In this document: one piece after another, positions 1-28,120 of the stretch
Numbering within the stretch: the stretch's first letter is position 1
How the letters are laid out: every line of letters begins with the position of its first letter
Assembly: GCA_051362555.1 (NCBI GenBank)
Contig: CM120640.1
Span: forward strand, 71,092,788 to 71,156,787
Length of the DNA stretch: 64,000 nt
Origin: Lingula anatina
Lineage: Eukaryota; Animalia; Brachiopoda
Reading direction: 5' to 3'
Notes under the pieces: generated by a model
The model's database searches: none
What the model was told of the DNA's origin: nothing
Seen by the model: the letters and a program-made list of their open reading frames with translations, nothing else
Program-made: the position numbers and the translations under genes

Positions 1-2360
1 CTGGGCCTCCTTAGTGACCTGTCCACCCAATGTGTCCAGCACCAGGTCAAACCTAACAAAATAAACCTTCCAGGTGACCCTGTTCTGATATATATATATA
101 TATACTACTATTATAACACATTGGTTTTCATGCATAACAACATACAACTTGGTATCACATGTAAAATTTTGGCATACAGGCACAAATAATTTTTTTCTTC
201 ATTTTGCTAAATTTAAGTAACTTTTTCTTGCATTTTTAAGCAACAGAAAAATACAATTAAAAATCAAAATGAATGCGAAAGGTCTTTGCCTCATGATAAC
301 AGGCTATTAGAAAAGAAATGGAGCTGATTCAGTTCAACAAACTCTTCTTCAACTTTTTCCTCCTTTGTATCAAAATGTTCCAGAAACACATGATAAGAGA
401 TCATATGTATTTCAATAGCTCCAATTTAGTACATAACTGGGAGTGTTAGAACTGTGGTGGCTGTAACAATGTCACCTACCCTGACAGCCGTGTGAGTTCT
501 TCAGTGACATTTTGTGTGTTGTAATCTATCACGTTATCAGCACCCAGTGACAGCAACAGAGGCACTGCGTCGGTGGAACAGGTGGTTGTCACCTCTGCAC
601 CCCAGGCTTTGAGGAGCTGACAGAGAAATAATGAGAATAAATATCTATTGAGGGAACGTACTAAGTATGGGCCACATCTTTAGATGTTTACAGTGTGTAA
701 TCTTAGAACAATTAAAAACCCAGTATAGCAAAATGAGTATTTTAATACTCATACCATATTTCCACCTGTGCTTGGTTTTCTATTACACTGCTCAGTGTGA
801 TGGTTTTTTATTCACTTACTTGTATTGCAAAAGTTCCCACTCCCCCTGAACCTGCATAAATCAACACCCTGAAGGAGGATAGAAAAGATTAAAACATTTC
901 AATCGTTTTCAAACTCAATTTTTAGTCTTCCCCAAAACAAATTCCAAGGTGTAAACATATGAAACTGAGGATTTGATTTAGAAGGTATAAAAATTTACCT
1001 TACTGTATGTGGGTATGTGACAATTAATTTTTTTTTTTGAGTATTTCAAAAATGAAGACTAAGAAAACCCTCCTTGCTCTACCTTTTTCCTGCAGTATTG
1101 TGTTCATTCAGGCCTCCAATGGTAGAAACTGCTGCCCACGTTGTCATGGCAGCATAGGGTATGGAGGCTGCTTCTATATGAGACAATCTCTTGGGTTTCA
1201 GTGAGATCTGAGAACAGAAGTTGAACCATAATATAGATAAATATGTCATCTGTAGGTAGGTAGTCTTCAGTCCTCTTGTGGTTACTAATACTAACTCATA
1301 TTTCAGTTTTCTCAATGAGTTTGGTTAAATGGTCATCAGTATTACTCCTGAACCCTCACCTCACTCTCTGATGATACAGTGAACTCTGCATGTGCTCCTT
1401 GTCTTTGGGCACCAAGGGCTCCCCACACCTTGATTAAAAAAAAAGATCTTATCACTTAGATAAAAATATCTCAGTTTTTGTTACGAGTGCACCATTACAT
1501 GAAGTATTGTATTTTTATTCTGCCTTAATTTTTTTTACTACATGTTCATGACTTTTAATAAGGCTATCCTAATTAAAAGGCTCTAGGAACTGGCCATCTC
1601 TGGCAGACAAGGTGTTAATCTACCTCATCTCCTGGTTTGAATCTCCTCACACCCACTCCTGTCGCCACCACCACACCTGAGAAGTCCCGGCCAAGAGACA
1701 GAGGAAACTCTGACCCAGAACTCAGTGAGCATCGTAGCCTTCTGTAGAAATTTAAAATACTGGATCCATAGCCAGCTGAAATATTTACAAAATCATCGGT
1801 GAAAATTGACTACAAATTGCATCTTCTGCTCACAAACAGCAATCTCTTTACAGCACATCATCAAGTACCCGGTATTAGGAGGTAAAAACTGACAGTTCAA
1901 TTTATCTCAGCATTCATTATACAATTATTTAGCTGTAGTGATATATCATGCCCTTAAACACAAGGCTTGCACATCATGTCAGAGAAATGTAATCTTATAA
2001 GAGTATCAATTTATTCTATATTTAAGTGAAAAACCTTTTCTCTAAATCTATACCTCTCATTCGTACATCAATGGGATTGACACTGGCAGCGTGGACCTCT
2101 ATTAGCAGTTCATCTGGATTCCTAATCATTGGTGTTCTGTGCGTTTTTGTCAGTTCTAGCTCCTCATTTCCTCCATATCTGTGAATCTGCCAAGTTGCCA
2201 TTCTGCCAGGAATCCGTTTACTGAATGCTCGGCATTGCACAGACAGTACACCCCCGGTTCTTCTCCACACACGAGGCACCAGTTCACAACACGAAGGGTG
2301 TCTTAGCTTGCAGCTGTAGTGCAGAGACCTGCTTAAGGATGTGCCCAGTGCTTTACTCAT
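1..2360 (-). CDS. RTN4IP1: Reticulon-4-interacting protein 1, mitochondrial NAD(P)H oxidoreductase (MDR family); 5' seven coding exons, gene continues beyond position 1
   Basis: GT-AG exons 2360-2054, 1775-1624, 1428-1360, 1207-1083, 868-820, 616-480 and 52-<1 splice in frame. Motifs: Arg-rich transit-like N-terminus, VHAASVNPIDVRMRAGYG, EFPLSLGRDFSGVV, EAASIPYAAMTTWAA, nucleotide-binding VLIYAGSGGVGTFAIQLLKAWGA, LGADNVIDY, FDLVLDTLG. Confidence 0.95.
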
Positions 2361-2892
2361 CGTTCCTGCGTCTTGTCGTGTGCTCGATTTTGACACAAAA
2401 CGACAAATAAATTTGTGAAAAGTTACCGGTGGTTCCGTTGAGTGGTGAATCAACGCAACCGAGTTTCTATCATCAGTAAAAAATAACTATTGCAAGGCAT
2501 AACCATTTACAAAAGAGTTGTCATTCAGGTGTCAAAGTACTTTAAATGTGTTTTCTACCTGCGGTCTCCCTCCGTGTTGACAGCTTGCTTATAAAACGTG
2601 TTTTCTAAATTTTGCCGGTAGATGGCAGTACACATCACTTTACTCTTTAACCAGATTTCTTTAATCTTTATGCATTTCTAATAAAGTTATTGCATTATTT
2701 TTGATAGAACTTGAATTTAAATTTCAAGTTTGAAGGCATGTGGTTTATACAAGAATAAATTCAACTCAACCCGTTTAAAGATTTGTTATCAAAGTTTCGT
2801 ATTTACATGCAGCGTCACCTATAGTACATACCGGCAAAGTTGACTGTAAACACGTGAAAGTAGAGCTTAAAAGCAGTGAAATACAGCAGTGG
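2361..2892. promoter_or_regulatory. Putative bidirectional promoter between RTN4IP1 and QRSL1
   Basis: Divergent ATGs at 2360 (-) and 2893 (+), about 530 bp apart; locally CpG-richer; CTCF-like CCGGTAGATGGCAGTA at 2615-2630; E-box CACGTG at 2851-2856. Confidence 0.65.
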
Positions 2893-5800
2893 ATGATGCT
2901 GTCAAGTTCTTTGAAAGAGGTGGTGCATTATTTGTGTGGAAAGTGCAAGCAAAAATGTAAAATGCACTTGATGCACAAGGGCTTTTGTAATGTCTTATTG
3001 CTATTAACCTTAGTAAACACATGTAAGCCTTGACAATTCGCCATTGCTTCAAGTGCTTGTACATGTAGAAGAACCTATGTTAAATTTAAGAAGGAATTGG
3101 TGTGTGAAAATTACACCCACATGGTCCCAAAAAATATCAGAGCTTACTTCTGCAAATTACATGTGAGCGCCCACAATCTCTCTATTGAACGGGGCAGGTA
3201 CTGCAAGCCAAAAATCCCTGAAGAGTTGAGATTTTGTAAACTTTGTGATTTGAATAAAGTAGAAGATGAGTTCCACCTCCTGCTAGAGTGCAAAGCATAT
3301 GATTCAATAAGAGATCCTTTCAGAGGGCAGCTGTCAGAGTTCCTACCCCTAGGCGACCTCAGCAATAATGAACTGTTTAATTTTCTTATGGGTGCTCTGG
3401 ACATAGATATTCTTAGAATGGTCATGTGTTTTGTAAATAGATGCTTTCAACAGAGAGAACAGGCCCTCTCTTAATACATTGTACTCTTTCCAATTTATTT
3501 ATTTAAATTCATCGCCTATAGATTATCATTATACATTTCATATATATATCTTTTTTTTTCTTTTAAGTTAAAACTAACTTATTGGTATTGATATACATGT
3601 AAACATTGAAGTCATGTATATTTATTCATTTTCTTGTTTGTACTGTTATAGATGTATTGTCTTTGATTGCATGTACCTTATATGTGAAGGTGTATCAATA
3701 AAGAACCTCTATGTTTTGGGGTTGTATAAATACTATTCAGTAAAATATTACTGTAGCTATACACCCTAGTTATAAGGCAAGTCGCTCTGTTTTACTGTTA
3801 TATTTAGTTTACATCTCAGATCTTTAAACAGTAGGGAAATGGCTAAAAACTAATTTTTCCACATTTTCTACTTATTTATGTTTTAAATTTTGTAATACCT
3901 GCCATTAAAATGTAAAACAACATTTTGTAGGATTACATACCAGTGTATTGTGCAAGTAACAAATTAATGCAGCTTTGTTATGTTTGCATTAAGAATTATT
4001 TTCATGAACTGTTATTTACAGATGGTCTGTTGCAGGTAATAAACAGCTTACGTAATGGCAGTATTCAGAGCAAGGAGTTGTGTGAGAAGTGTATCAGACG
4101 TGTGCAGAAGACCAGAGAACTGAATAGCTTCATCACAGAGACACTAGATATTGCCAGAAGTCAAGCTAGTGAGTCACAGGCAAGACAGCTATCAGGTAGG
4201 TCCGTAGACAACTTACTGTTGCTTTTTAAACTTTAAATCTAATATTATGTTATCTGGCAACAATTTAGAGTTATTCATGAATTTTGGCTTGGAGTCTTAA
4301 TTTTTCTCAGAAAAAACATTTCTCCATATTTGTAATCGTTTTCCTGACCCTGTTTTGCTTTTGGATTCGATGTTAGTTTTTTTTTTGCTACTTTTAACTT
4401 AAGAACTTACTCCTAAATGAATCATTTAGGCTACCATTAGTTTTCCAGATGTTTCAGAATCTGAAAGAAATATAGTGTCATGCCCTTTTATTTGAGGAAT
4501 TTTCATTCTTGTAGGCCTGAATTGGGAAAGATCTCCGTGGGATATTAAGACAGAGATATGACTTTGGAACATTGATTATTGGATAATAGTTATATTTAAA
4601 GTTTATGGAGATTGGGGATTATTGTTTATGATAAGTAAAAAATTTTTATTGTAATCAAGCACCCCACTGCCACAGTGATTAGGTATAATAAATTTATTAC
4701 CGAAAGAATGCAGTAAACAAAATTATGATAACAAAATGTAAGAAATTGTTTATACTACCGTAATATGTGTACATGTACACCAACAAATAAATCACCGATA
4801 TTACTTTGGAAACATGTTTTCACATAATCTGTTTGATTGCTCATTGTTCCAAGAATTTCTATTAAATAATATTTAAGTGATAATAGTCACTAACTTTAAC
4901 ACAAAATATATTTATGAAGCAGCTATGTTTTGCTCTTGTCATGCTCAGCCTGATGATGCTCTTGTAATTATGTATTTCTACATTCTGTTAAATTAAATCT
5001 GAGGCAAGAATCCAAAGTTTTTCTAGGTTGTCTGTCTATATCTGTAATGTGCACATTTTCCAGGCTCCCCTCTAGGTATTCTAGATGGTGTCCCAGTCGC
5101 TGTGAAAGACAACTTCTCCACCTTGGGCGTGCAGACATCTTGTGCATCTGCGATCCTCAAAGGCTATGTTCCTCCTTATAATGCTACCATGGTACAGAGG
5201 CTGCTGGACCAAGGCGCTGTCATGATGGGAAAGACAAACTTAGATGAATTTGCTATGGGGTCAGTAAGCACGTGTGTGTTTGTGTGGTAATATGTCATGG
5301 TATTGAAGAGTTTTTGCAATTAGGGTGGGAGAGGGGGATACAAAGGACCGTCGCTGTAAAACTCTGAATCAAAATTTGATCTAGGCCCCATGCCATTTCT
5401 CAAGTAGGATCAGCCAAGGGGCTATATGGCCCACTTTTACAGAAAAGGAACCTGCTCTAAAATGGGTGGCTGTAGGCCTGATCATTTATATCTTAAATTT
5501 GCCACTGTGACTGAAGTGTTACTGATTGTTGATTTGCAGGTCAGGCAGCCTGGACAGTGTCTATGGACCAGTGAGGAACCCTTGGAAGTATACTTTTCAA
5601 AATTACGAGGCCAACAAACAAGACGACCTGAACAAACAAAGTTTAAGATGTTCAAATGAAGGAAATAGTTCAAATCATAAAAACAATATGCAAAGTGAAA
5701 TTATAAAAAATTCTGATGGTATGAACAGTCAAAACAGGTCATCTGATATTCCTGAAGACATGGATGTCAGTGACACGAGGTCAGAAGAATGTGATTGGTA

Positions 5801-8800
5801 CGTGAGTGGGGGCAGCTCAGGAGGCAGTGCTGTAGCCGTAGCAACAGGGACAGCTTTTGCGTAGGTTTCTAGTAGATTCAGATGAATGAATGAATTTTAC
5901 TGTGTAATGTTTATGAACATGGATAATATCAGACCCAGTTTAAATGATTCTGTCAGTGTATTATAAACAGAATAACTTGCATGTTGTCAGAAGTTTAATC
6001 CATCTCTCTTTGGGACCTATGTGAACTTAAATCTCTTTATTTATTTAAGATGCACATTTTCATATTATGTTGAATATCAACTTTTCATTTAATAATATTA
6101 GTATTAGTGATAGAAGAAGTAATAATTCAAATGATGGAATGAAGTGCACTTAGCAGATTCTCTTCCAGAGCGCTGGGTTCTGACACGGGAGGTTCAGTGA
6201 GGATTCCCGCCTCCTACTGTGGTGTTGTGGGCTTTAAACCCACCTATAGCCTGCTGTCCCGGTATGGACTGATACCTTTAGTCAATTCTCTGGACGTACC
6301 TGGGATTTTAACCAAAACAGTAGATGACACTGTGATCATGTTAAGTGAGTGCTTTTAGAACCTGTGTTGTTTATGAAAATCATTAATTCAATGGTGCGTG
6401 TACTCTGTCTTTCTCATATTGTGCAAATAAACATTATTGATGTAAGTTTTAATAGTAAACAGTGCAACAAATCAAAGCTCATCATTTTGTGAAGGTCAAC
6501 ATCGTATGAAGGTGAACAATTTATAAGGGTCAACATTGAATGAAGGTCATCATTTGTCACACCTGTTACAGATGTTTTAGCTGGCCATGACATCCATGAC
6601 TCCACAACTATGACTGACCCCTACAGACCTGTACTGGCTGTTGATTTTCCTGAGAAAATTTCTCTAAAAGGATTGCACATAGGAATACCAAAGGTATAAT
6701 TACGGTAGCTGTTACATTTTAATAACATTATTTCTCTACGTCAAGCTTGGGATTTTGAAATAAGATTTAACACATTGGATTTTGAATAAAAATAAAACTA
6801 TAATTCTGATAACTACAGCTGAAGTTTAAAGAGAAAGAGAAAAAATAATAGTGGATATACTAAGTCACGTGGTTGTTGGACATAAAACAAACTTAAAGTG
6901 AGCTACATGCCCTTAATCTCACTGTTATGCCCCTCAACTTTCTCTCTTTTAGGAGTATCATGCCCCTGGTCTGGCGTCTGATGTTCTGTCGGCCTGGGAC
7001 AAAGCCGCTGACCTGTTTGAAGCTCATGGCGCCACAGTAAGTGAGGTGTCTCTGCCACACACTCGCTTCTCCATCGTCTGCTACTCTATACTGTGTGCTT
7101 GTGAAGTCTCCTCCAACATGGCAAGATATGATGGGATTGAGTTTGGTTAGTCTGTATTTTTTAAGACTTAATAATAATAATAATAATAATAATATATAGT
7201 GTCAAAAGATATAGTTCAATTATGATAGCAATCAGCATAGGTCTAACTGGCCTCTGCAATTCAAAATGATACGTTGAGTTGTTTAATTAGTTATCTATTG
7301 ATTGCCATTTAAGTATTTATTTATGATGTTGGAAACTTGTGGAGGTTGTATTGGAGTGATGGGTGCAATAGGAATGAAATGAACCAGCTGTTTTGTGGAC
7401 GTGCACAGCTGTTTTGGGGATGTGCATGAATAGTTGTAGATTGACAAGTGCATGTATTCCAGTGTAATCACAACCTTATGGGATTTGGAAATTTATTTTA
7501 TGTCGGGAAATGTATAGTCATCGCCTGCATTTTTTGTCATCATTAGCATCCCAGCTAGCATTGCCATTGATAAAATTATTCTTTACTTAGAGACTAAATG
7601 TGTTTGATGTTTGTTATTTAGTCTTTTAAGTAAAGAATGATTCTATTTTATCATCCTATCTAGAGATGATGAAAAACCTCTTTCATAGTAGCATTGTCAT
7701 TGTCATGCACTGTCCTCCTTAACATCATAAAAACATTTATATGTCATATTGTAATAAATATTGACAAGAAAACATTTTGTGCACTGTCAGCATTAACACC
7801 ATTATTGATACCAGTAAAAGGAAGTCCATGTTACTTATTATTCTCAATTTTTTCCCCAAGGATTACAGCTCAAGTTAATATCCAGTATTATTAGATTATT
7901 TTTTGTGATGTTTTGTGCCTCCATTGCAGGTCACAGGGCACAGAATGCTGACACGTCCACAGAGGCTTTGTATGCTGCTAGCAGACACGAGGGCTTTAAT
8001 GATGTCGTCAGGGGGAGAATCTTAGCAGGGAACTATTTTTTACTTAATAAGTAAGTACTGGTCTCATAGTGCTGATACAGCATACCTGCTTAACAAAGGT
8101 TTAGCCAGCAAGCTGCCCACTTGGTATTTGTTAAAGAAATGAAGGTTTTATACTACATGTATGAAAAGTTAAAAAAAAAGAATATTTTTGTTGGAATAAG
8201 AGGAATAAGAATTGTGAATGCCATTATATTCTTCACTATGGAATAATTATTTTATTTTGTATAAACTAATTTCAGAAACTATGACACTTATTTTATCCAA
8301 GCGCAGAAGGTGCGTAAACTGATCAGCGAGGACTTTGCCCGCGTGTTCTCCGCGGGTGTGGATGTACTACTTACCCCTACCACACTGACCTGTGCCCCTA
8401 AATATAGCTGGTATAAGAGAGAAGACAACAGAACTAGGACAGAACAACAGGATGTTTTTACTCAGCCAATCAATATGGCAGGTAATGGGTCTAGGAGCTA
8501 GCTGTAGTCCACTTGTATATTCATTATTTACATTATTTGATTGAAAAAAAAGTGATGCACTCAAATATGACCCTTCATTTGTACATTAGAAATATCAGAT
8601 TGATGTCCAAAAGTCATAACTTGCACCTTAGAATTTCACAGAAGAGATCCAATTTCAGCAGAAAAATGGTATACGAGAAAATTATAAAACAGACAAAGAG
8701 CCAATGGTTACCACTGTTTCATTTCTCTTCAGGCCTGCCTGCGGTCAGCGTGCCAGCCTCACTGTCAGATGAGGGCGTACCCATAGGGCTACAGTTCATT

Positions 8801-8905
8801 GGACCAATGTTTAGTGAACAGAAACTGCTCACGGTAGCAAGATGGTTTGAACAGCAAGTGCATTTCCCTAGGCTCAGCTTGGATGGAATTCTTGGAGATT
8901 TATGA
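2893..8905 (+). CDS. QRSL1: Glutamyl-tRNA(Gln) amidotransferase subunit A, mitochondrial (GatA), complete, 10 coding exons
   Basis: Exons 2893-2919, 4036-4195, 5064-5259, 5540-5860, 6169-6344, 6572-6693, 6953-7145, 7930-8050, 8276-8481 and 8733-8905 have compatible phases. Amidase motifs [60 protein letters not shown]; GatA motifs [50 protein letters not shown]. Confidence 0.97.
3060..3480 (+). mobile_element. 3' fragment of a non-LTR retrotransposon (RTEX/CR1-like C-terminal zinc-knuckle region) in QRSL1 intron 1
   Basis: ORF 3097-3474 contains [10 protein letters not shown]...[20 protein letters not shown], typical of a LINE ORF2 C-terminus; no RT core present. Confidence 0.75.
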
Positions 8906-11900
8906 TAAGAAGAAAAATTAGGAGGAGACATTGGGTTTATTCACATCAATATTTTGTGCTGAATTTTTAAAAAGTGCTATTAAAAGTAATCTTGCTTTTG
9001 AATTAATCTCTTGTTTGTTTGAATTGGTTTTCTGAAAAGCATTCTGGAAAGTGTAATATGTGGGCATTAATTTACTTAAAAACAACAACAAATTTTGTAA
9101 GTTAAGGGCAGCAATTTGATTATTCTAAACTGAGACTCCAGGGAGCTTATTAAACGCTGACATACTCAGTACAAAGAAGAATATGAAAATAAAGATTGAT
9201 GATATGTCTGGCACTGTTTCACATATCAGAACAGACTAAGTATGTCATCACAGACAGACTAAATTATATTGATTCTTCTTTACAAAATAATCTGTTGCCC
9301 AACTAATTAAAACCTGTTCATGGAAAATGTTTTAGCAATTGTCTTGAGCTGTATTTCATCATGCTGTGGAAAAGGTTGATTTTTGTTTTTTTGATTAGAC
9401 TCCAGGTTTCATGCTGCTGTAACCTGGCTTTGTAGAAAACCAAGACACTCCTGTCCCTCATTTTATGTGTTATTGATTTGATCCAATAATATGAATGCTT
9501 GAAATGTCTTTTCATGCTGAATAGAATTGTGTAAATATTCAGATATAACTCTCACATCAATGGAAATCAAATCTTGAGCTCTACTGGTCAGAAACAAAGA
9601 ATTGTCAGCTGTTTGCCAGAACTACGAATTACCTTTAACAAGCATATCTTGTTAATTTACTCAGCCTATTAATACCCCTCCTGCTAAGGTACTGTACATG
9701 TTTCATAATCTGAAACCTGAAAATTTATATGTGATTATTGCTCTGTCTTCCGATTCTCAGGCTCTACATGTAATTTAGTTTGAAAAATAATAGCATACGT
9801 TGAAATGATTTTTGTGCAACTTGGTTAAAAAATCTCATGGCAGTGAGGTTTTCTGTCATGATTTTAACAAAGCCAATCACCGCTAGAAAAAAATGGAGTC
9901 ATGTGTGTTCCACTGCAGTATCCCATAATACTCTGCAATTAATTCGAAAAATGAATCAGTGCAGTTTGAAAAACGAATTACATGTGAGATATCTGTCTGC
10001 TTCCCCAGAAGGTGTTATCAAGAGTTCCACACCCCCATGCAAACACCTGGTGTTAAAAAGCTGTCTTATTTGACATAATCCCCATGTTATGTTAATTGAT
10101 CTATGGACTTGGTCATTGTGAACAATGTTGAGCACCTGTGTTAATATCTGTGGAGTCTGTACAGTGCATGATCAATATGGAACATGCATGTAGTACATTG
10201 TATTGATTATTGTTTGTGGCTTTGTTTTGTGCTGTCCACAAGTAATCACTTATTAAGTATTGGGGGGGGGGGGGGGGGCAGGATGGACAGACTTTGATTG
10301 CTTGAAGAAGTGACAGCCTACATATTTATATACCAGTAGTTGTATACAATAGTGCAAACTGAAGAGAAAAAATCTGATTTATTGTTCTAGAAGAGATCCA
10401 TTTGTATTAGTTACATTAGCAGTGCCTGGATATCCATTCAATTTTGTAGGACAAGGATCAATGTTTTGCAGATAATAAAGCCCACTACCTAAATAATCAG
10501 ACATGCAAGACTGAACTTAGTGAGAGAGGATTTCCCTTGAGTTCTTCACTCTACATTAATGACACACATTTCACAGTCTACATGGGAAACATTTTCAGTC
10601 AACTTGTAACAGCTCAAATTAGAACATATTCCATGTTTTAGACCCTTTATCATAAGATAATTTAGTTCTAATTAATGACTGGCCATCATTTAGACTGCCA
10701 TTGTCTTGCTGGTCATTTTGGAAGGAAATATGGAGATCTGGTACTCTTTTTTGGGAGGTTTTAGCTTTTTTTAGGTCTAAATTGAGAAAGTTTTTCAGGA
10801 CATGTAGATATAAAAAATTTAAAGGATATATGTTATCTAATGCTGCTTAAATACCTTTGAGTACTTTCCACTATTTTCACTCAAGTTTGCCTTAGGTCAC
10901 TGAAAATTACTCCTTTTTCATTGGAACAGAGGTGGCTTTCTACATTGTAGCTAGTGGCTTTTGAACCCCAGGGAGCTAAATGGTCCCTTTCAATTAAAAA
11001 TTGGGGCAAACAGACTGTGGACATCTGCCAATGACCCAGACATGTCTGGAGAAGAATCTATAAGTGATGTCCATCATCTGATTAATCAATTTACGTGTAC
11101 AACTACGGCAAATCGACCAACTGATTTTTACCCGGTGACTTGATTAGAAATGGGCTGTAGTACCTTGTATGTATTGATTGGTCAATTAACTATTTCCTGT
11201 GTTATAAAAGTGATTGATCAAAGTTGTACAGTAATCAGGCCGTCTAAGCCATAGATTTATATATTTTTTTGTTTTTCTGGCTTGGAGAACATCTGCACTA
11301 AGAATTCTCTTTGCTCAATTTTAGCAAATTGTTATGAAGATATGGAAATGGTATTTGTCATTTTATACTAGTCTGATAGAGTTACTCCAGGAATTATCAC
11401 AGTCAAGTGTACTGCAGTGTCTGGCAGAGCTCAGTAAATGAGATCAAACTCACTGCAGGTAACTTCCAGCTTCACTGTCAACACTGATCAATACCTGTTA
11501 AGAGCCATCGTCTCAGAGAGGAAACATGGGAGTTAAAAGCTGAAGGGTTTTATGTAAGCTGAGATTTCTATTTGCGCACACTTTTCACTTTCAGTTCTGA
11601 AGTCTAAGCTTGCCTTCAAGTAAAACCCTTCAGAAAATATTTTACTTTTTGTAATTAACATTGTCCAAACCCCACTCTACATTACAACATAATAACAATA
11701 AAGATAAATAAAATAAAATTGCCTATTTGCTTTAAGTTATGCCAGAGTTTTAAGTACATCATCTCTTCAGCACAATGTAATAAAACATACTGGTACTTTT
11801 AAAAAATCAATAATCAAATGTTCAAAATGCTGATGTTGGTGCATAGAAAATGGGGGCCAATGTCAGTTACATATGGGTCCTAATGGAATGAGACACATCA

Positions 11901-13898
11901 AGTATTAACTGCTATTTTATTAATGCTGAACGGAGATATGATTGAAATACATCGGGTGATTTCAGTTTTCTTTTATACTTGACTCATCTGGCAGAAAGAG
12001 TTGGTTCTATCTCCAGGAAGCCTTATGTTTATAAAGCCAGACAAATCATCTGATCACTGCTGGGTGCCCATGTAATCCCTGTAGCAACAATTATTAAACG
12101 TGTTCACATTGTTTTTTTTTTTGTTTGTTTATCTTAAATTTATTGGCAAGTTTTATTTGTTATAATCTTGTTAGGATTTACCAAAATTGCCGTAAAAATG
12201 CAGGTCAGGTTAAAAAACCATAGTAATTGGACAATACACTGATATAAATGCAATTTTGTTCTGACATTTGATAGAAAATGTTAAAAATGTAGTGACTGGA
12301 CTGTTATGTGGGAAATATGTAAATTTCCATGGACAATTTCCCCTTCAGTCGGTGTTATGATTAGAATAAATGAAGCGTAGAACAAATTGACAGATTATTT
12401 TACTGTACTACATGAACCACCCTCATTAAATATACTTGCATTTATTCAAGTCCATATTTTCTGTATCATAGCTTGCAATCTTTATTATTCAAGACTCCCA
12501 TGGATACTTTTCCTCATTTTTTTTACACTTAATGTCAGTATACCTGTACATGTATGAGCCAGCTTTGGGGGCTTTTTATACCATATGCATTCATAATACT
12601 TAAAATATCAATATGATACAATGTAGCCATGCTAACCAGTGGGAGAACTGAGACAAGAGATAGCAGTAGGACAAAGAACATTTATTCCAGATATGCAAAT
12701 GTGAAAGCCGGCAGCTGGCAAGTGAGGATCAATACAATAGGATACTGAACATATTCAAGGAGACAAAGCGATAAAATCATTTGAAATTTCCATCCATTTA
12801 AACAATTAAGAAAAGCTACAATCCAAATCAATTTGCTTCATATAATCGTATCTGTTCGTTTCCTAAAGGTTGAATTAATGGCTCATTGTCATCCCTGAGA
12901 GCAGAGAATGTTCTGGTGGTGCTCATTCCCCATGTTTGTAGCAGGTTTGGTCAAGTGGCTTGGAACGCTGGTCAAGCATGTTATGTAGCCATATATTACA
13001 GCATTAAGAAACGACAGTGCTATAATTAGATAGCGGAATCTCAACATTCAAAGTTCAGTTATTTAAGAACTGAATATGTTCTAAGTACATTACAAATTGC
13101 ACACATTTTTTTTGAATAAAAAAGGTTTTGTTTTACATTCATGGAAAAAAACAGTATGTACTATTAATAAAATATAAGGGAATTATCACTTTTACCTGTA
13201 AAACAATAAGTTTTTCTTGACAATAAAATGTATCATTTTAAAATCTATGACAATATTAAAAATAAGTTATAAAAATACCATGAAAGGCTAAAAAGGAACA
13301 TTTTTTGCTGCTTTCTGACATTCTATGAACAGTTTTATTGTTAATTCTTGAGAGAAATGCTGTTAAATTAAGTGGCTGATAGTTCAAGTACCATTCATTC
13401 ATTCTCTTTCACATAAATATGGTGCTTCAAATCAAACGGATATACCCTTGTTATCAAGAGGGGAGCTTAGACCTGTTATTACTGTGTTCTCTGTGGTTGG
13501 TGTCCATATTGACTGTTCCCGGCAGGTATCTTCCTCTGGTCTTATGGAGATCTATGTTACTACATGCTGACTGCTCAGAGCCTGTAACTTCCTGTTGTCT
13601 TATAAAGAACTTGTATGTTAATTTAAGCTACCTGCAGGCTGCACCTGAACAACAACAACAACATGTCTGCAGCAAAAACGGTTCCTTTTGACCTGGAGTG
13701 CCTCCACTGAGGTGTAGATCGAGTCTGTTGTACATCACATTGTAGCACATCAAGATTTGTTCACACAAGCCTGGTCCAATTAATATATACTTTCTGGGAT
13801 GTTCCAAGCTGTTAAAGCTAAAATGAAAAAGAAATGGTTTGACAAAGAGGCCCAAACATAGAATCTCAATCAGTTCATGCACACAAGCACATCTCACT

Positions 13899-14000
13899 CC
13901 CCTTAGGAAAAAGTCCTATAGGATCCTATTAGATCTTATAAGATCCTTTAGGAAATTGGGGCAATTTCCTACAGAACCCTATAGGATTTTTTGGTAAGGG
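13899..14000. mobile_element. Small palindromic MITE-like element
   Basis: CCCTTA...TAAGGG ends with internal CCTATAGGA palindromic subrepeats. Confidence 0.45.
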
Positions 14001-14275
14001 TCACTGAAAATATTCAATCAATGGACAACATTTAACACCTCATTTCACCATAAATAAAGAAAGCGGTAATTAAAAACAATTTATCACACATGCCTTAAGT
14101 TTTTTATCTCAATTATCTCAGTAAAAAAATGTTTAATGGAGCTGATGACTTTACTTGCTGTATTTATATTATATCCATGTATACACAATTAAGGCAGGAA
14201 GTCAGTCAAACATTCTGTTGCCATAACTACCATGACACAGTACCTGAAGTGAAGGAGGTCACATAGCGATCAGTC

Positions 14276-17139
14276 TTAATGAAACAAAGCGCAGAGACTG
14301 GACATGGCGGCCACCAGGACGGCAGTCAGGACAGTACTATAACTGGACACTGGACCCCCAGGAGCAACGGAGCCCGTTGTATTGTTTTGCTACAACAACA
14401 AAATATAACAGTTTTACCAAAAAATGTATACTGTGATATACTTAAAATTGATAATATGATATAATATTTTCATACCAGTACATGCACCTCATTAAAATCT
14501 GTTACATTTTTACAAAATTATATAATTTTCATTTTTGCTACAATACCAAAATAACAGTTTTACCAAAAAAAGTATACTGTGATACTGAAAATTCTACAAT
14601 ATTATATATTTTCATACCAGTGCATCCACCTCAATAAAATGTTACATTTTTACAAGTAATATTTATGCTTGTACATGTTTCTATAATCATGCAGTACATG
14701 ATACACCACTATTATTTAAAGAATATTCGATGATGACTTACAGAGATGTCAGAAAGTAATAAATCTGAACATTTTAAAGAGCTGTAAGATATATATGTGT
14801 GTTTTCAATCAAGTTGGGCTAATCTGCCTTTTGGAGGTTTTCTGGTATCTCACAGCTGTCATTAAAACACAGAGGACACTAAGAGTTAACAGACCCCCCT
14901 CCCTCTCCCAGCTAGGTCACACCATGGAAGTACAATTAGGATGTTAATTATCATACCTAAGTATTCAAGTGAATTCAATTTGCCTGGAAACTGTCTCTAG
15001 CTCTGAAGCCAGGCAGTGCATTGATCTTTTTGTATACTTATATATATATACACTGTATATTCATCAATTATTCAAGTGCCTCCTGCTTACTCCATGTATA
15101 GTATGACAAATGTAATGGATTGAAGGCTGTGTGCCTGTTCAGTGAGTTATGAGACAATGAAATTGTAGCTTTAAAAAGACTTCTCCATTAGGTTATCATC
15201 ATGTATATCAATATAAATTTAGTGCCAGGTACATAGGACTCTTATATATGACTCTGTTTACAAAATGTTATCACTGTCCTCACATCACCCTGCTTTAGAA
15301 ATACAGTTGTAATAATAGCCAATTATGTCTCGCCATAGAAAAGGTTTAGCACATACATGGACACTGGTTTTGTTGGCACTGTCATATTATTATTGTTTTG
15401 TTATTTGCACACAAGGCCCAAGGCACCGTGTCTGCCTCAGTAAAAGACATCTGTCTTCTTATCATGTTTTTTTCCCTCTAGGGCTGGCTTTGTAATGTGG
15501 AGCCAAATAAAATTTCAAAGGCCAGACAAACACTCATAGATATTCCAATCACAGAAAAAATTATTCTGACATTGTATTATTTGCAGATAACACACTAGAT
15601 TTTGTTTTTGTATCTGAATGGTGTTCTTTTACCTGGCTGCCCCAACAATGAACTCGACTGTAAATCTATATTGCTCATCTTATATGTAATCATGTCAACT
15701 GAAATGATCTACTTTTTATGCAGACTGAGTAACATTTATCTAAAAGCCATCATACTGTACATGCCCCAGTGAGACAACTTTGCTGTAAGTCACCCAGAAA
15801 ACAGGAGCTGATCAATATTTTGTGACAGTTCACTTGGCCCTAGTGTCAGGACCATGTTTTGTTGGGGGTGAGTCACTCCCACTACAAATAAACATGAAAA
15901 AGATACATAAAACTTGGAATAGGATAAGAGCTGGTTTTTATCCTCTACAGTTGCACGCCCATACCAAACAGTTACTGCATAAGTTAAAATACTTTCTAAA
16001 ACACACCTATAGAAGTTTGTTATTTAAAATAGACACATTCCTGGTAAAAGCTTTCAGTTTCCTCAAAAAGTACATTTGCCGTCTTGTCCTTTTTCAGTAG
16101 TTTTGTGGTGTTATCACTCCAGTTTAGTCTATTGTTCAGTTGGACACCCAGTAATTCATATTCACAGACCTGTTTGACAGTTTTGCCATTAATTTCTATG
16201 GGACTTTTACAGTTCTGGTGTCTTCTATAGTCTACAGTCTTCTTTTGTTACCTACCATTGGTTAGTGAAACCGTTTTGAAATTAATTTTTTCCATTTGAA
16301 ATTTGGTTTATTGTTATTATCTCTTAAGACTTTTTTATCACAAAAATATCCCTATCTATGACGGCCCATGGGGTCTGATGGCAAGCAAAGATTCCAGAAT
16401 AATTGCAAGTACAGACTTCAGACTGAGTTGTTTATAATGCATGTTGTTAAATATGAATCTCATACAAATTTAAGTTATTATCCCTTTAAAAAGTGTCAGG
16501 GCATGATGCTACCACTAACCATAATGGGCTATTATCTTGATATAATAAGATTTCTACATATAAACTAAAATATTTTCGGTTAGATACAGGCCCCCAATTG
16601 TGAAGTGAACCAATCTTTTTTTTTTTGAAAAATCTTCTTTTTCCTTTTTTTTTTACACCAAAATTACAAATATTGTAAAATTATAAAATCATAAGAATTA
16701 TAAAAGTGCACTTTGGACATAATTTCAAATTAAAATGTATAATATATATAATAATATATGCAAAATATTTATATAATATGCAAAATATTTTATTAATTAC
16801 GGCACCCATTGAAATTCATACTGGCGCGCCATCCGATCTTTTCAAAACTTTATTTCGCGAAATCTATCTTTATTTCTAGTAACTGTCATAAAAAAGTATC
16901 GCACAAGACACGCGATAATACCTGCCACCATGTATATTGCGCACGAGCGGAGGTAATATCAACATGCGTATTGCGCACCGCTTTCATTCTATCATACCTG
17001 CCAACCAATAAATGAGATGTAAATGAATTAAAGACACTAACATACATAAATAAGTATATATACTTACTGCTAAGACATAGACAGTGTTTGTGGCTATTAA
17101 AATCACCACAAATAATGCAAGATACAGCTGTCGATACAT
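14276..17139 (-). CDS. 61-aa CD24/CD52-like GPI-anchored micro-glycopeptide precursor (signal peptide, short mature peptide, hydrophobic GPI-type tail)
   Basis: Exon 1 CDS 17139-17068 (context CAACAAC-ATG; MYRQLYLALFVVILIATNTVYVLA; donor GCA|GTAAGT). Exon 2 CDS 14389-14276 (acceptor ttttgttgttgtag; QNNTTGSVAPGGPVSSYSTVLTAVLVAAMSSLCALFH*). Phase-0 join. Candidate 3'UTR intron 14243-13809; minus-strand AATAAA near 13335 and 12681. Confidence 0.75.
14386..14655. repeat. Imperfect direct duplication (about 140 bp) of the intron 3' end next to micro-gene exon 2
   Basis: tttgctacaa..aaaat..taacagttttaccaaaaaa.gtatactgtgata..ttttcataccagt.cat.cacctca..tgttacatttttacaa occurs twice (about 14386-14516 and 14533-14655). 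Confidence 0.8.
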
Positions 17140-18330
17140 GTTGTTGTAAGGCGAGCTAGGTTGTAAAAAGCGCTTTTGTTCCTCACTCTCAGCTCTCAGG
17201 TAGCGGTGGCGGGAGGAGAAAGAAGGCGTGTCGGGTGCCACGAATTTCGAGAATGTTAGAGACTTTAGTGAGAGATATGTCAACCTTGAAAATGTGTACA
17301 TGAATACTTCATTAGTATTTTCTTGATATATGACAGCAAAAGAATTGTATGAATGCCATACGTCTACGAGAGTTTCCGCATCTGTGCGCTGCTATATTTT
17401 ACCATTCTTTATTTTTTATCATATCCGGCTGTCAAAATGGAACACGTGCAGCTTCCTTGTTAGTAAACAATGCTCTCTGATGATCTGACATTGATGCATA
17501 AAAACAGTAATCTATATTATTCATTAGATAACGTACACAGCAGGCGTTATTTGACTAGTTCTTCAGAAATGGAAACCTTACAGCTGCAGTCTGTACTGTT
17601 AATTTTTGCCCACTAAAATTGACGGAGAGAAGGTTGAAGCTGAAATTAGAAAATAGCAATTTTTTACTAGGACGCTGATTACAGGACGCTAGGACGCTGA
17701 TGCTTTTTGAAAAAATGAGACACAAAATACACAAGCTTTGTGCTTAAGCCTTCTGGGACACACTTTTACTGTTTACCTTTAAGTATTATTTAAATAAGTA
17801 TAACAAACTCCACGTCCGTTTTCAAATGTACATGGTAATGTTGATTTTGACAAGATGTTATACTGGTATGTACCAGAATATGTGGCACTACTACATTTCA
17901 ATTGCTTTTTATGTCTGTTGTCTGTAACCTTTTGTCTTTGAGGATTCTTATACATGTAAAATTTATGCTGGAGTCTCTGGGCATATTCTTTGAGCTTTGA
18001 TTCTTACGTGATCTCACTGTCCTATATATGTTGACATGCTAATAGTAGCTATAGTTAGGTTATACATCGTGTGTCTTTAACATATGTTATAGGCAAAAAT
18101 TTCTTTTTGAAATAATTTAAATCTCGCCCTTATAAGCCGGACATGTCTGTATGACACACCTTTCAATTATATCTTATCTTATCAATTCAATTACATTTTA
18201 GTTCACATCTTTAGTTCATATCTTACTATTTTAACCACCTTTTCAATTATTTTAGTTCATCTGATTCTGTTCATTTTACCCATGTAAAGTCTACTGAACA
18301 TTTTATATATGGATTTTAGACTATAAATAA

Positions 18331-18331
18331 A

Positions 18332-18368
<37 letters not shown>
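18331..18368. repeat. (TAT)n microsatellite
   Basis: About 12 TAT units read directly. Confidence 0.9.
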
Positions 18369-19209
18369 TCAAACCATAGCTGTTAAAAATTTTGTTTTTA
18401 GTTCCCATACATTCACCGAATACTTCCAAAGTACGAAGGCCTACCCGTATGTTGCCTGAATCAAACATGTGACTCCCAAGAAAGTTTTTTCATGTAAAGA
18501 TTTCAGTCGGAGAATCATGTTCATTAACATTGCTGTTGTGAACAACCACGATATCAAGTGAGTTTTTAAATGATATCCAAATGTTACTTATTTTCAAGTT
18601 TCACAATTCTGTTTCTATTTGATACTGGTTGTCAAATTACTTATCTGTGATATATTTCTTTTGCTTAATCTGTGTTACGTTAGACCTATACATCGAATGT
18701 CAAGAATTAAATTTTAATTTAAATATCTTTTAAAGTTAAACAAAATATAGAGACTAACACTTATTTAGAGGGAATTTTAGAAGTTATGTGCCTGCTTACA
18801 CTGCATTGGTTTTCCATTTAATAGTACAGGTGTGGGTGTAGATTCTCCTTTTCTCTAAAGTCTGACATTGCTATTTAGAAATAAGCCTTAATCCATCCTT
18901 TACAAGTAATACTTAAAATGGAATTTTACGTGAATTCAAAATCAACGTGTGTGACAAACAAAATCTTTAAAAATTGTACATCATTTATATAAATTTTAGA
19001 ACTAGACATATTACTCAGCAGGCATTAAAACATTTCAGCTAGGGTGATTTGTTAGGTAGATTTTGTCTCTGGCCTTCTATTCACAGAGAAGGTGTGGAAG
19101 ACATGATAGAGAGTTGATTCTTACTCTTAGAGATTATTTTAGTTTTCTCGGTGTGCTTTAATGTATTGAGTTGATATCTGAATTCTATTCAAGTACCACA
19201 AACTGCAGA

Positions 19210-21165
19210 ATGAAGATGAAGTTAAACATGATGGTCGTGGGTTTCTATGTTGTCTCCATGACAACAAAAATGTAAGCACTTGTGGTCATGATCAAATCTC
19301 TCTCTCTATCAGTGTATTGCTTTTCGTCCTTAATTCAGAGGTCTGTTTAAATCTGCTGAGATGGTTTTAATTTTTTTAATTAGGATGTATTTATGCTCAA
19401 TGTAGGATGATTTTGAAGTGCACAAACATTGTTTCACTGCTAAGGATTAATTTATAACACAAAAGATCATTCTGATGATATGCATCAGTTTCATGAAATG
19501 CTACTGTTTTGGTTCCTCATCAATGTCCAAGAACACAACAACGCCACACTTGCAAATTCCTCTCAGAAAGATTATTTGAATTTCACATGACATTGTTTTA
19601 GGGATTGTGCCCCTGTTAATGGCACGAAGCCTCAGCTTACAGCGAGGGAGATTGGGATATTGGTCTGCGATCCCACGGACACCAATAACGATGGCATCCT
19701 CACTAAACTGGAATGGGTTAGTGCAATGGCTAACATGGACTTTGACCGTAAGTTTTAGCATGTCTTGTCTGCAATAGTTATAATTAAGAAGCATAACTTC
19801 AGCTGGAATTTGTAACTGAATCTATTCTGGAACTTTTAACTGAATCTATTATTTAATAAATTTCTTATAATACCAAAAAATTTAGCATTGCACAAGATGA
19901 AGATGTAAACTCATACAATGTTGCATTATCTGAAAGAATAATTTCGTGAATCGATTGAATGTGAAATATAGATTATTGCCAATACCCATTATTCTTTGGG
20001 TTTTCAGACAATGATGAAGTTACGCACAGTGAGTTGCTGAGATATCTGGTCAAACTGGATAGCAGATTTCGGCCACTGTGGTCTCGTGCAATCTTTGAAT
20101 CGATTGATTTTGATAAAGATGGAGTACTGACAGAAGATGATATGTTTAAATTTGGGAAACTAGATGCCAATGGTGAGTGTTTCTTATGTCTAACATGGTC
20201 CCGTTTCTCAAACAACTGAAGAAGAACGCACTCTTTGCCTAAAACACAAATATAGTGTTTATAGTTGAATAAGGATATTAACCGTCGATCAAAAACAAAA
20301 TGTTCCTAAGTGTTCGTAATGACATTGCTCACATCATTAAACATCTATATCAACTAGAAGTAAATATATGTGTATACGACATGGCACAACGCATAAAATG
20401 ACAGTTGTTTATCTTATTCAGGAAATGGACAGACAGACAAGGATGAATGTATTGAATTATGTGAAAAGGTATGGTTGGTTTTGAATACCATTATTACTGT
20501 GAAAACAATCGCTCTTTTTAACTGTTTGAATCAGTCCAGTTGGATATATGTACCTCTAGTAGTGAAAAAGATTTTGTTACCTCTTGAAAGAATCTATAGA
20601 TAGGATTAAATACCCAACTTAATCAAAAATTAATATTGGGAGATTTAAGATAATTTTATCTAAACAACCACCATTCATTTTTTTTTCTGACAGCAAGCGC
20701 GTTTGACTTGGCTGCCATTAGGTTCGAGTCAGTGTTTGAAACCGTTATAGTTCATAGAAACCGAAAGTCTTCAGTGATTTTAAAAGCTTATAAATAAATG
20801 GGTTTATATTTGTAATGAACAGTATTTCAAAAAAATTTGATTAATAATTTGGTTCTACAATATTGTTTCAATTTAAGCTTTTGAAAAAGTACGACCCCAC
20901 GCTGGAGTAAACAGCTACCCACAATATTTGCCATAAGTGGTAAGTGCTGAATATGTGACACCTGTATTTGGCATATGTATCAATATATAGATAGATATCT
21001 GATGAAATATTTACATATGCAGTAGATTAGGTAAAATATATAGTACGTATTAGACTGAACTCCCAAAAGAAAACATATTGGTTTCAATCTTTTTTTCCTT
21101 TTCAGTTCCAGTTTTTAAGAAGACATCATGGCAAAAAATATAATGATGAATCATCAGTAGTTTGA
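19210..21165 (+). CDS. Putative secreted four-EF-hand calcium-binding protein
   Basis: Exons 19210-19271 (MKMKLNMMVVGFYVVSMTTK, signal-like), 19602-19747, 20008-20172, 20422-20468, then 21106-21165 (or 20694-20750). EF loops DTNNDGILTKLE, DFDHNDEVTHSE, DFDKDGVLTEDD, DANGNGQTDKDE. Possible upstream in-frame exon 18517-18557 after a TCAGT initiator-like motif. Confidence 0.85.
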
Positions 21166-24987: not shown

Positions 24988-27900
24988 TTACAACAATATA
25001 CACTGGAATAAAAAAAAGGAAAAAATTACACAAGGAATTTTAATCAAAGAGCAAAAAGAGTAAGCATTTTCATTTTGTTTCTAGGTTGAATTGTTCCTAA
25101 CTAAAAGATATCATTTCTAGAGTGTTGTGGAATTTTTCTATGTGTACAAAACACCCATTATAAAAATGTAAGTAAAAGTCATTAAAAAAGATGGCAAGCC
25201 AACTAAGAATATGTCGGCTTTGCATAGCAAATGACCAAAAATTCTTACTTTATCATCTTTCTTCTTATGTTCCGTATCATGCCTTTCCCGGTTAGCAGCC
25301 TCAAACTGGCGTTGTAGATGGAGCTGGTTTTGTTGCATCTGCTGCTGTCTTCGGGCATCTCGCCTCTGTTGGGATGAGTCTGCACGACGGTTTTCTTCCT
25401 CTTGCAGCTGCATTGCCAGTTGAAGGCTACAACATTAACGGACAGACTTTTTTCAAATTAAGTCCACATTTAGAAGACTGAAATGTTAAAGCAAATACCA
25501 GCACCCAGATGTGTTAACAGAAACTGTAACAGAAATATCGATATATTCACTGGGAGATGTAAATATTGGTTGGGGATGGGCTCAATTTCTTTCATAAAAA
25601 TGCAAAAACTAGCACCAAAATCTGGAAGATTCTACAAAATCAATTTTTGCTCAAACTCAATGGGCAGGATCCTCTCAGATTACTAAGTTATCCATCTCTT
25701 AAAACTGACAATATGTGATTGACCTTTGTCAAGTAATGCAGATCCTAGTCCACTGAGATTAAAAAAAGATTGAGGCATCATGTTGTAAACAGTTAGGGTT
25801 CATCAACAATTTGCAACAAATGTCTCTTTGCTTCACCTTAATGCGATTGAGATATTTAGAGGAAATCAAATAGAAATTAATGTCAAATTATGGTCAATTC
25901 ACCAACTGCTAAATAAATAAATAAATAAATAAATAAAAATACACAAGTCTAAAATTGATCTTTTGACTGGTCAGCACAATTCTTGAATCATGTAAGATTC
26001 TCAAAACAAATAAAGCATCATAAAAAGAAAGCTAATAGAAGCCTCACTCAGTCTGCTCTGTAGATTCCTGTCCTGGCGACCATGTTGAGGCTGGTAGCTG
26101 ATCCGCCTGGTCTTGCTGTAGAGATAATGCCACCAGGTAACTGAAATATACAGCACAGTCTACTTCAGTCACATATAACACACCTGTGCCACGCCCATGC
26201 TGGGAGGAGGGGGGTGAGGGAGGGGGGTGGATATGTTAACTGAAATATACTTCAGTCACATATAACACACCTGTGCCACGCCCATGCTGGGAGGAGGGGG
26301 GTGAGGGAGGGGGGTGGATATGTTAACTGAAATATACTTCAGTCACAGATAACACACCTGTGCCACACCCATGCTGGGGGGGTGGGATTGGGGGGGGGTG
26401 GACGTAGAACACAGTGGACTACAGTCACACATAACACACCTATGCCACGCCCATGCTTGGGGGGGGGGGGGAGGGTGGTAGGCACCCTGAGCTTCAGAGC
26501 TAACTTGACACTAACCTTTTCACTGTAGCCTTTCTCCATCGTGTCAAGTAACCTCTGACGAAAATAGTTTGACCTAGTTTATATAAGCCAATCGAATCCG
26601 TTTCAAAATTTTTCACCAAAGTTTTGTGAAAACGCTGATTGGTTGATCGTCAATCGGCAATCCTCGGCTGATTCCGCAAGCTCCATACTAACAACATAGT
26701 TATTGTCGAGTGCGGAGACATCCGAGTAGTTCCGAGTGCATAACCGTACACAAAGAAAGCATGGAGTATATCGGAATTGAAACCAGAGCAGTTTGAGGCC
26801 CTGCATCATTATCTACTGAGGGATGATGTATTTTGCGTGCTGCCCACAGGTTACGGCAAGTCCCTGATATTCAGCCTTATTTGTGATTGGTCTGGATTTG
26901 AACAAAGCGTGCTTTGACTCGTTCGCGTTCATTGGCTAGATCGTTCAATGAGTCATTGAGTGCGGGCTTTAAATTTGATTGGCAGGCGGCGGGGGCAATC
27001 GAATGTGGTCAGAGGTTACTTGACACAATGGAGATAGGCTACAGTGAAAAGGTTAGTGTCAAGTTAGCTCTGAAGCTCAGGGTGGTGGTAGGGGATGTGC
27101 AAACAAACTGGATCATTCCCCATGCTATAAACTGAGGACCAAAAATCAGAAAACACATTTTCCAGTTATGCACTTTCTACACCACTGTGTGTCTTACTGA
27201 CTGATCATAAAATAACATTTATTCAGGGTTTAAGTTCCATCAACATTTCATTCAGAGTTACCTCCACACAGTTAATGGTCAAATTTATTTAAATGTAAGA
27301 GAGCATTTATCTTTCCTCTCTTGTCTCTATGGAGTTAACCTTAAATGCGGACATCAGATAAATAATATTTCTGATCAATAACTGTACTCTAGCGATTGCT
27401 TTTGAATGTCATTCTAATGTAATCCCTCTCTATAACTTTCTGCCATGGTAATTTAATTGACTTTACAACACCAGACCTGGCAACACATTCACAGCCAATT
27501 TACATGTTGTTCATCATCATGAAACAGAGTCACCAGTTGATCTGAACAAATGCACTCTGCTTTTAACTGATAAATCAAACGGTAAATCAAAGTCTCCCTC
27601 ACTTACTACAATTTGGAGAAACAAAACACATTGTCTGCCTTATATGTATATAGGGCAAGTCTGTACAACGGAGAAAGTTCAGCCAATTACCACTAGAATG
27701 TGTTATCTGTAATATAGTTCATCAATTTTTGTAGAAATCATCAGATCCCAAGATCTGAGCGAGATATCACTGTACAAATTATCTGGTTAATGAGTCACAG
27801 AGCTTTACACAGCTCAGGAATTCAAATCTGCTGATGACAAAGATGCATGGCAGGGTTTACTAAATGACGTCAGGGGGGAATAATGAGGAAGAGAGCCGAC

Positions 27901-28120
27901 AGGAGTTCCAAACTTACTCATGGTCCACCTGGCTTTCTGGGTTTTCTGGGGATGCCTTGACTGGCCCCTGTCCAGCTCCTTGGGTCATCTCCGCCTTCCT
28001 GTAGGTGACAAAGTTACAGTTGACAAAATGGCAGTCACCCTCAACGTTGGACAGCGTCTCCCACACCACATTGCTCTCTGTCAGGAAACCCTGGTCCGTT
28101 ACCAAAACAAACAGCTCATT
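24988..28120 (-). CDS. MINDY1: Ubiquitin carboxyl-terminal hydrolase MINDY-1/2 (FAM63), last four coding exons; upstream exons not found in the window
   Basis: Exons 28120-27918 (NELFVLVTDQGFLTESNVVWETLSNVEGD), 26140-26048 (DYLVALSLQQ, MIU1), 25426-25249 (DLQLAMQLQEEE, MIU2) and 25002-24988 (CILL*, CaaX) have compatible phases. MINDY1 versus MINDY2 orthology cannot be resolved from this fragment. Confidence 0.9.
26139..26475. repeat. About 88-bp G-rich tandem repeat (about 4 copies) abutting a MINDY acceptor
   Basis: cagtcacatataacacacctgtgccacgcccatgctggg... is repeated; aactgaaatatac occurs three times. Confidence 0.85.
26483..27084. mobile_element. Non-autonomous TIR DNA transposon carrying a RecQ-helicase fragment (AcademH-like)
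   Basis: About 75-bp TIRs (CACCCTGAGCTTCAGAGCTAACTTGACAC...); TSD GTGGTAGG at 26475-26482 and 27085-27092; 26774-26872 (+) translates to ELKPEQFEALHHYLLRDDVFCVLPTGYGKSLIF. Confidence 0.8.

Follow-up and report, generated by a model that had tools for sequence, protein, structure and literature searches.

Here we report that a 64,000-nucleotide stretch of the genome of the brachiopod Lingula anatina (contig CM120640.1, positions 71,092,788 to 71,156,787, hereafter the window) carries, tail-to-tail with QRSL1, an expressed micro-gene of three exons with a 61-codon frame held under purifying selection. From its sequence, the product is predicted to be a very short N-glycosylated peptide held at the cell surface by a glycosylphosphatidylinositol (GPI) anchor, and it likely works in the manner of vertebrate CD24 and CD52. 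In our judgement the gene, CD24/CD52-like in kind, probably arose independently of those two or has an ancestry that can no longer be traced. It appears to be either lineage-restricted or diverged beyond recognition, and its place beside QRSL1 is more likely a coincidence than the inheritance of a CD24-type gene from the bilaterian ancestor.

CD24, also known as heat-stable antigen, serves as a “don't eat me” ligand for Siglec-10 and marks stem cells and cancer, while CD52, the CAMPATH-1 antigen, is the target of alemtuzumab. Both are treated as late vertebrate inventions, mainly as neither can be traced by sequence. The locus described here makes their origin testable by position instead, beside the deeply conserved RTN4IP1-QRSL1 pair. 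Should deep ancestry prove true, glycan-presenting GPI-anchored micro-peptides would be an ancient animal device, and CD24 and CD52 would form one family. If the gene was not inherited, it would represent convergent evolution of a minimal glycan-on-lipid-anchor design, and it would clearly exemplify a protein gene that is conserved and highly expressed yet missing from the protein collection searched. The minimal GPI-anchored glycopeptide is already known as a type from CD24 and CD52; what the collection lacks is the Lingula gene.

Transcript structure and coding status of the micro-gene

The structure of the micro-gene was read from public RNA runs labelled Lingula anatina (seven in all: X1, X2, X3, X5, X8, X9 and X10), aligned to positions 1-20000 of the window at 95% likeness and to positions 14200-17300 at 90% likeness. 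Its parts, in the order of transcription, are as follows.

17068..17205, minus strand: exon 1, with a 5' untranslated region (UTR) of about 45-66 nt and 24 codons; ATG at 17139; from RNA reads
14390..17067, minus strand: intron 1, 2678 nt, phase 0, with a GTAAGT donor and a pyrimidine tract before the acceptor; GT..AG joint 14389/17068
14244..14389, minus strand: exon 2, with codons 25-61 and the stop (14389-14276), the stop codon TAA being at 14278-14276; from RNA joints
13818..14243, minus strand: intron 2, within the 3'UTR; GT..AG joint 13817/14244
12665..13817, minus strand: exon 3, 3'UTR throughout; from a depth of 155-371 in X2 and an X1 contig spanning 13146-13817

The joint that removes intron 1 was seen in all seven runs. 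At 95% likeness it was covered by one contig in X1 and by 263 reads in X2, 3 in X5 and 27 in X8; at 90% likeness the counts were 187 reads in X8, 116 in X9, 85 in X10 and 221 in X3. The phase-0 split after codon 24, proposed in an initial annotation of this DNA, is thereby confirmed. The joint of intron 2 was carried by one contig in X1, 163 reads in X2 and 58 in X8, with none in X5.

From reads that end at 17184 and at 17204-17205, the transcript is judged to start near 17184-17205; the ATG stands in the good start context AACAACATGT, with A at -3. At the opposite end, an AATAAA at 12686-12681 agrees with a fall in depth at that point. Intron 2 begins 32 nt past the stop codon and is therefore too close to it to trigger nonsense-mediated decay by the usual distance rule of 50-55 nt. 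In strand-specific libraries the mate pattern of the micro-gene equals that of RTN4IP1 and is opposite to that of QRSL1, which assigns the gene to the minus strand. Depth in X2 ranges from 50 to 371 over the micro-gene, compared with 8-19 over QRSL1.

Some local irregularities accompany this transcript. The depth of X2 in the 3'UTR drops from several hundred to 8-53 over 13150-13340, with reads starting at 13307 and stopping at 13152; X1 and X8 are continuous across the same interval, and the dip may reflect an alternative third intron or an allele difference. Intron 1 contains a reverse-transcriptase-like open reading frame (ORF) fragment (15790-16247, minus strand), as well as a stretch at about 16280-16487 that is covered on both strands in X8-X10 and from which reads extend into unlike sequence on either side, so that it is likely a dispersed repeat expressed from another place. 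Over positions 9000-17600 (8.6 kb) there were 0 matches to Rfam families, and neither repeats nor a tandem family were found.

The 61-codon frame opens at the first ATG of an mRNA of about 1.4 kb and is the longest that this mRNA offers, the runners-up being 52, 48 and 40 amino acids long. Sequence variation among the RNA runs bears on its coding status. X8-X10, which come from one study, differ by 5-10% from the reference in the micro-gene (most reads being 90-95% alike); numerous differences are fixed, and 1 nt of the 5'UTR is deleted at 17147. Divergence on this scale suggests that the RNA came from a diverged population or from a cryptic species. Substitutions were counted for 21 variant alleles at 20 coding positions, among the variants listed, a scope that applies to every silent and replacement total given here; Nei-Gojobori site counts and a binomial test were used. 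Exon 2 shows 10 synonymous changes against 2 replacements (p = 7e-5), and because of this synonymous excess we conclude that it codes for protein. The two replacements, V44L and L59F, each at about 20%, occur in X9 only. Codons 25-43 hold 7 silent changes and no replacement, and residues 32-43 within them 5 and none. The signal-peptide exon carries 3 silent changes and 6 replacements (p = 0.4), a relaxed pattern of the kind usual in signal peptides.

Predicted product and searches for relatives

The layout of the product was read by simple sequence rules (hydropathy, the -3/-1 rule, sequons and omega rules). Residues 1-4 are polar and include one arginine, R3, past which the product has no charged residue; residues 5-16 are strongly hydrophobic (mean hydropathy 3.1), and residues 17-24 finish in V-L-A. 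Cleavage is predicted after residue 24, because the valine and alanine at -3 and -1 fit the -3/-1 rule, and the predicted cut falls exactly at the exon junction. No charge occurs in residues 25-43, which have a mean hydropathy of -0.6 and serine or threonine at 7 of the 19 positions and include the motif NNTT, which provides overlapping N-glycosylation sequons at N26 and N27. Residues 44-60 make up a hydrophobic tail of 17 residues (mean 2.35), after which a single residue follows. The strict candidates for the omega site are S31 (omega+2 = A) and S40 (omega+2 = S).

If this layout is taken at face value, the precursor would enter the endoplasmic reticulum, its signal peptide would be cut off after residue 24, one or two N-glycans would be added at N26/N27, and the last 20-30 or so residues would be swapped for a GPI anchor. 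Attachment near S31 would give a mature peptide of about 7 residues, the alternative at S40 one of about 16. Such a minimal stalk would display its glycan on the outer membrane leaflet, and function would reside in the glycan rather than in the peptide, either as a surface coat or as a lectin ligand.

Searches for relatives came back empty. With the 61-residue product as query, hmmscan matched 0 Pfam-A families at E up to 10, those of CD24 (whose profile we take to be PF14984) and CD52 included, in agreement with the initial annotation, which had seen no direct sequence similarity to CD24; this null is weak evidence because the product is short and low-complexity. A search of a protein collection of 5.8 billion clusters returned no relative, and the query protein itself was absent too. 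The blank says little on relatives because the collection probably does not hold such short products.

Gene order around QRSL1 and in the remaining window

The window has a GC content of about 35%. The genes flanking the micro-gene, together with the other features located in the window, are listed below.

1..2486, minus strand: RTN4IP1 homologue, 5' part, continuing beyond the window start; from RNA joints, a PDB match and an NCBI protein match
617-819, 868-1081, 1208-1359 and 1776-2053, minus strand: RTN4IP1 introns, from RNA joints; ATG at 2360
2361..2892, no strand: head-to-head interval shared by RTN4IP1 and QRSL1, about 530 bp between the ATGs; from ORF reading and divergent transcription
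2893..8905, plus strand: QRSL1 (mitochondrial GatA) coding region, from GT..AG RNA joints and TIGR00132; stop TGA at 8903-8905
2893-2917, 4034-4192, 5061-5258, 5539-5860, 6169-6344, 6572-.., ..-7144, 7929-8050, 8276-8478 and 8730-8905, plus strand: QRSL1 exons, from RNA joints
9341..12664, no strand: tail-to-tail spacer, about 3.3 kb long, from QRSL1 to the micro-gene; from RNA depth
19444-20219, plus strand: small EF-hand protein gene, the upstream neighbour of the micro-gene; from a domain scan and a protein match
47781-51642, minus strand: LINE-type (long interspersed nuclear element) retrotransposon in two adjoining frames; from a Pfam scan

No transcript was detected in the spacer, where depth in X2, X5 and X8 does not exceed 0.64 over bins 9339-12006 and falls to zero over 11340-12006. 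Because RNA depth between the two 3' ends is near zero, the micro-gene is the first gene transcribed beyond the 3' end of QRSL1, and the two genes converge. The initial annotation had proposed the same position and orientation, and the RNA joints, the strand pattern and the empty spacer bear it out.

The identity of both conserved neighbours is well marked. RTN4IP1 exon 1 (2022-2486, minus strand) has human RTN4IP1 as its sole PDB match (2VN8, E 7.7e-10) and is 99% identical to the NCBI entry “reticulon-4-interacting protein 1 homolog [Lingula anatina]”, after which come gastropod proteins at 48-74%. The DNA is that of a brachiopod and not, as the initial annotation took it to be, of a mollusc. 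In QRSL1, the GatA equivalog TIGR00132 was the top match for 5 of the 9 exon ORFs tested, and the profile positions matched (57-120, 156-215, 258-317, 356-426 and 421-464) are ordered along the gene, the 3'UTR of which ends at about 9200-9340. An open frame resembling a retroelement remnant lies in QRSL1 intron 1 (3034-3474, plus strand). The interval between the two start codons is likely a bidirectional promoter. An excerpt of PMC2871058 places RTN4IP1-QRSL1 among the ten most conserved human bidirectional pairs, and the head-to-head arrangement, with RTN4IP1 on the minus strand (ATG at 2360) and QRSL1 on the plus strand (ATG at 2893), is retained in the brachiopod.

Further along the window, no BEN, polyprenyl-synthase, MTRES1-type or other 6q21-type domain, and no UBX domain, was found in 88/88 ORFs of at least 70 amino acids (17.4-64 kb) or in 150/244 ORFs of 45-69 amino acids (those up to 45.4 kb). 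Among the ORFs of at least 70 amino acids, those above the Pfam cut-off belong to a MINDY deubiquitinase and to a LINE (reverse transcriptase and endonuclease), with an EF-hand match below the cut-off; the ORFs of 45-69 amino acids gave one weak DEAD-box match. The EF-hand protein shares 85-86% identity with two Lingula anatina entries named “uncharacterized”, and its search returned no other relatives and no vertebrate counterpart. The sole GC-rich stretch of the window (26000-28200, GC 0.44) lies between the weak match to a DEAD-box helicase N-terminus (26744-26914, plus strand) and the last exon of the MINDY deubiquitinase (27917-28201, minus strand). One LINE frame (49858-51642) contains the endonuclease together with the beginning of the reverse transcriptase, and the other (47781-49898) contains reverse transcriptase and zf-RVT; a single frame break near 49880 separates them.

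Ancestry and comparison with CD24 and CD52

The vertebrate CD24 block we take to run AIM1/CRYBG1 - RTN4IP1 - QRSL1 - C6orf203/MTRES1 - CD24 - BEND3 - PDSS2; MTRES1/C6orf203 presumably stands between QRSL1 and CD24 on the human map, and CD24 is presumably convergent with QRSL1. In an excerpt of PMC6581687, C6orf203, QRSL1, RTN4IP1, ATG5 and PREP are described as “located very close to CD24”, and a chicken figure legend, as excerpted from PMC4148213, gives the apparent map order BEND3, C6orf203, QRSL1, RTN4IP1, AIM1. C6orf203/MTRES1 thus probably lies between QRSL1 and CD24 in amniotes. The initial annotation had described the Lingula gene order as a mirror of the mammalian CD24 locus, with CD24 as the next gene after QRSL1. 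Closeness to QRSL1 stands, on the wording of the first source, and immediate adjacency is not supported, given the order in the chicken legend. The RTN4IP1-QRSL1 half of the mirror, moreover, loses its value as evidence on CD24, the pair being conserved in its own right (PMC2871058, as excerpted); because that pair is already deeply conserved, the mirror reduces to one informative adjacency. The two coding exons ascribed to CD24 are supported by an excerpt of PMC1847692, which describes a pair of coding regions for human CD24, with a large intron 1 between them, and also a long 3'UTR.

CD52 occupies a related block. It directly adjoins AIM1L/CRYBG2 according to bioRxiv 10.1101/2021.04.07.438882, and a cattle gene list excerpted from PMC12587522 reads LIN28A, ZNF683, CRYBG2, CD52, UBXN11. 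According to the text excerpted from PMC7662092, the ZNF683-AIM1L region is held to duplicate the PRDM1-AIM1 region, and the paralogous arrangement is present in elephant shark; AIM1, in turn, adjoins RTN4IP1 in the chicken list (PMC4148213, as excerpted). Because papers describe the segments around CD24 and CD52 as duplicates of each other, we infer that both arose by duplication of a single gene present in this block before the jawed vertebrates diverged, and the evidence suggests that the duplication is old; loss of the duplicate RTN4IP1, QRSL1 and MTRES1 would leave CRYBG2 beside CD52. The duplication does not, however, close the gap between early vertebrates and a brachiopod.

Several accounts of the micro-gene may be weighed against these data. 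A non-coding RNA or host gene with a fortuitous 61-codon frame is a very improbable reading of the transcript, even though about 1.2 kb of its roughly 1.4 kb is UTR and no such protein is present within the collection searched, since exon 2 shows the 10:2 skew towards silent changes (p = 7e-5), the frame uses the first ATG with A at -3, and no Rfam families occur in the exons or introns of the gene. On the skew, the first-ATG frame and the zero Rfam matches, a long non-coding RNA or small nucleolar RNA host gene was rejected. A real protein that lacks a GPI anchor, for instance a hairpin micro-protein that crosses the membrane twice and bears a glycosylated loop, or a secreted or otherwise processed peptide, is somewhat less remote and still unlikely. 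It would account for two hydrophobic segments of 12-20 residues, for an omega spacing that is ideal neither for S31 nor for S40, and for the 5 silent and 0 replacement changes at residues 32-43, which would be mere discarded spacer if the anchor were attached at S31. Against it, the N-terminal segment has the n/h/c layout and the small -3/-1 residues of a cleaved signal peptide and tolerates 6 replacement variants, and the C-terminal segment stops one residue before the stop codon with no charged flank, as is typical of GPI signals and uncommon for a transmembrane anchor.

The alternative that carries most weight is deep orthology, which we regard as possible but doubtful. On that view the Lingula gene descends from a small GPI-glycopeptide gene that the protostome-deuterostome ancestor already carried downstream of QRSL1 in convergent orientation, which would make it the pro-orthologue of CD24 and, via an early vertebrate segment duplication, of CD52. 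The Lingula micro-gene would then be a surviving protostome counterpart of the CD24/CD52 ancestor. A GPI-anchored glycopeptide gene would have lain tail-to-tail with QRSL1 since the bilaterian ancestor, been duplicated together with the PRDM1-CRYBG segment in early vertebrates, and been missed elsewhere as too short and too fast-changing for sequence search, an outcome to which we give the same modest chance. The neighbour, the presumed convergent orientation of CD24 and the split into two coding exons at the signal peptide end all match. CD24 is “very close” to QRSL1, RTN4IP1 and C6orf203 (PMC6581687, in excerpt), CD52 abuts AIM1L/CRYBG2 in a segment held to duplicate PRDM1-AIM1 (PMC7662092, in excerpt), and the CD24/CD52 family is probably far older than the literature says. 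On the opposite side, neither Pfam nor the 5.8-billion-cluster search gave any sequence match, and only one adjacency is shared, the conservation of the RTN4IP1-QRSL1 pair having causes of its own. In amniotes C6orf203/MTRES1 probably separates QRSL1 from CD24, whereas no such gene was found among the Lingula window ORFs scanned. CD24 is unreported outside amniotes in the excerpt of PMC9680537, and the match was noticed post hoc among many windows.

We accordingly favour a CD24/CD52-like gene that arose independently or cannot be traced. Coincidence is also favoured by the lack of any further 6q21-type gene among the window ORFs scanned and by an EF-hand neighbour without named relatives. Several points nonetheless weigh against the view adopted here. 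The QRSL1 neighbour matches the CD24 locus in kind and, presumably, in orientation; if the two vertebrate segments are indeed duplicates, a gene of the CD24/CD52 type in the vicinity of this block likely predates the jawed vertebrates, and deep ancestry becomes more probable on that account. Neither omega candidate is ideal, with a spacer of 13 residues for S31 and of 4 for S40, and the silent and replacement totals cover the listed variants only.

Known short GPI-anchored glycoproteins offer three comparisons. Lineage-specific, mucin-like small GPI-anchored glycoproteins of invertebrates differ from the Lingula gene, which is single-copy, with no tandem family in the 8.6 kb searched, and the exposed part of whose product is strongly conserved within Lingula.

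CD24 has a signal peptide, a short, heavily glycosylated peptide and a GPI-type tail, a layout that rule-based reading predicts for the Lingula product as well. Both genes have two coding exons with an intron at the signal peptide end (in Lingula in phase 0 after codon 24), a long 3'UTR, a QRSL1/RTN4IP1 neighbourhood and, presumably, convergence with QRSL1. They differ in that the Lingula precursor has 61 residues, compared with 76 in mouse and 82 in human CD24 (PMC9680537, in excerpt), in that the exposed peptide would be about 7-16 residues long rather than the 30 or so of CD24, and in that two overlapping sequons take the place of the many N- and O-glycan sites of CD24. The Lingula gene also has an extra intron in its 3'UTR and lies directly beside QRSL1, at a distance of 3.3 kb, whereas amniote CD24 probably has C6orf203/MTRES1 in between; its product matches no Pfam family, that of CD24 included.

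With CD52 the differences are chiefly of place. The Lingula product has no Pfam match here either, and CD52 adjoins CRYBG2 and UBXN11, not QRSL1; a UBX-domain gene was not found among the window ORFs scanned, and the window starts inside RTN4IP1, so that the CRYBG side lies beyond it. CD52 is made as a precursor of 61 amino acids with a signal peptide of 24; its mature peptide, about 12 amino acids long, bears a single N-glycan close to its beginning, and the gene has two exons. These figures make its dimensions nearly equal to those of the Lingula product. By function, too, CD52 is the closest analogue, its peptide being little beyond a glycan stalk on a GPI anchor.

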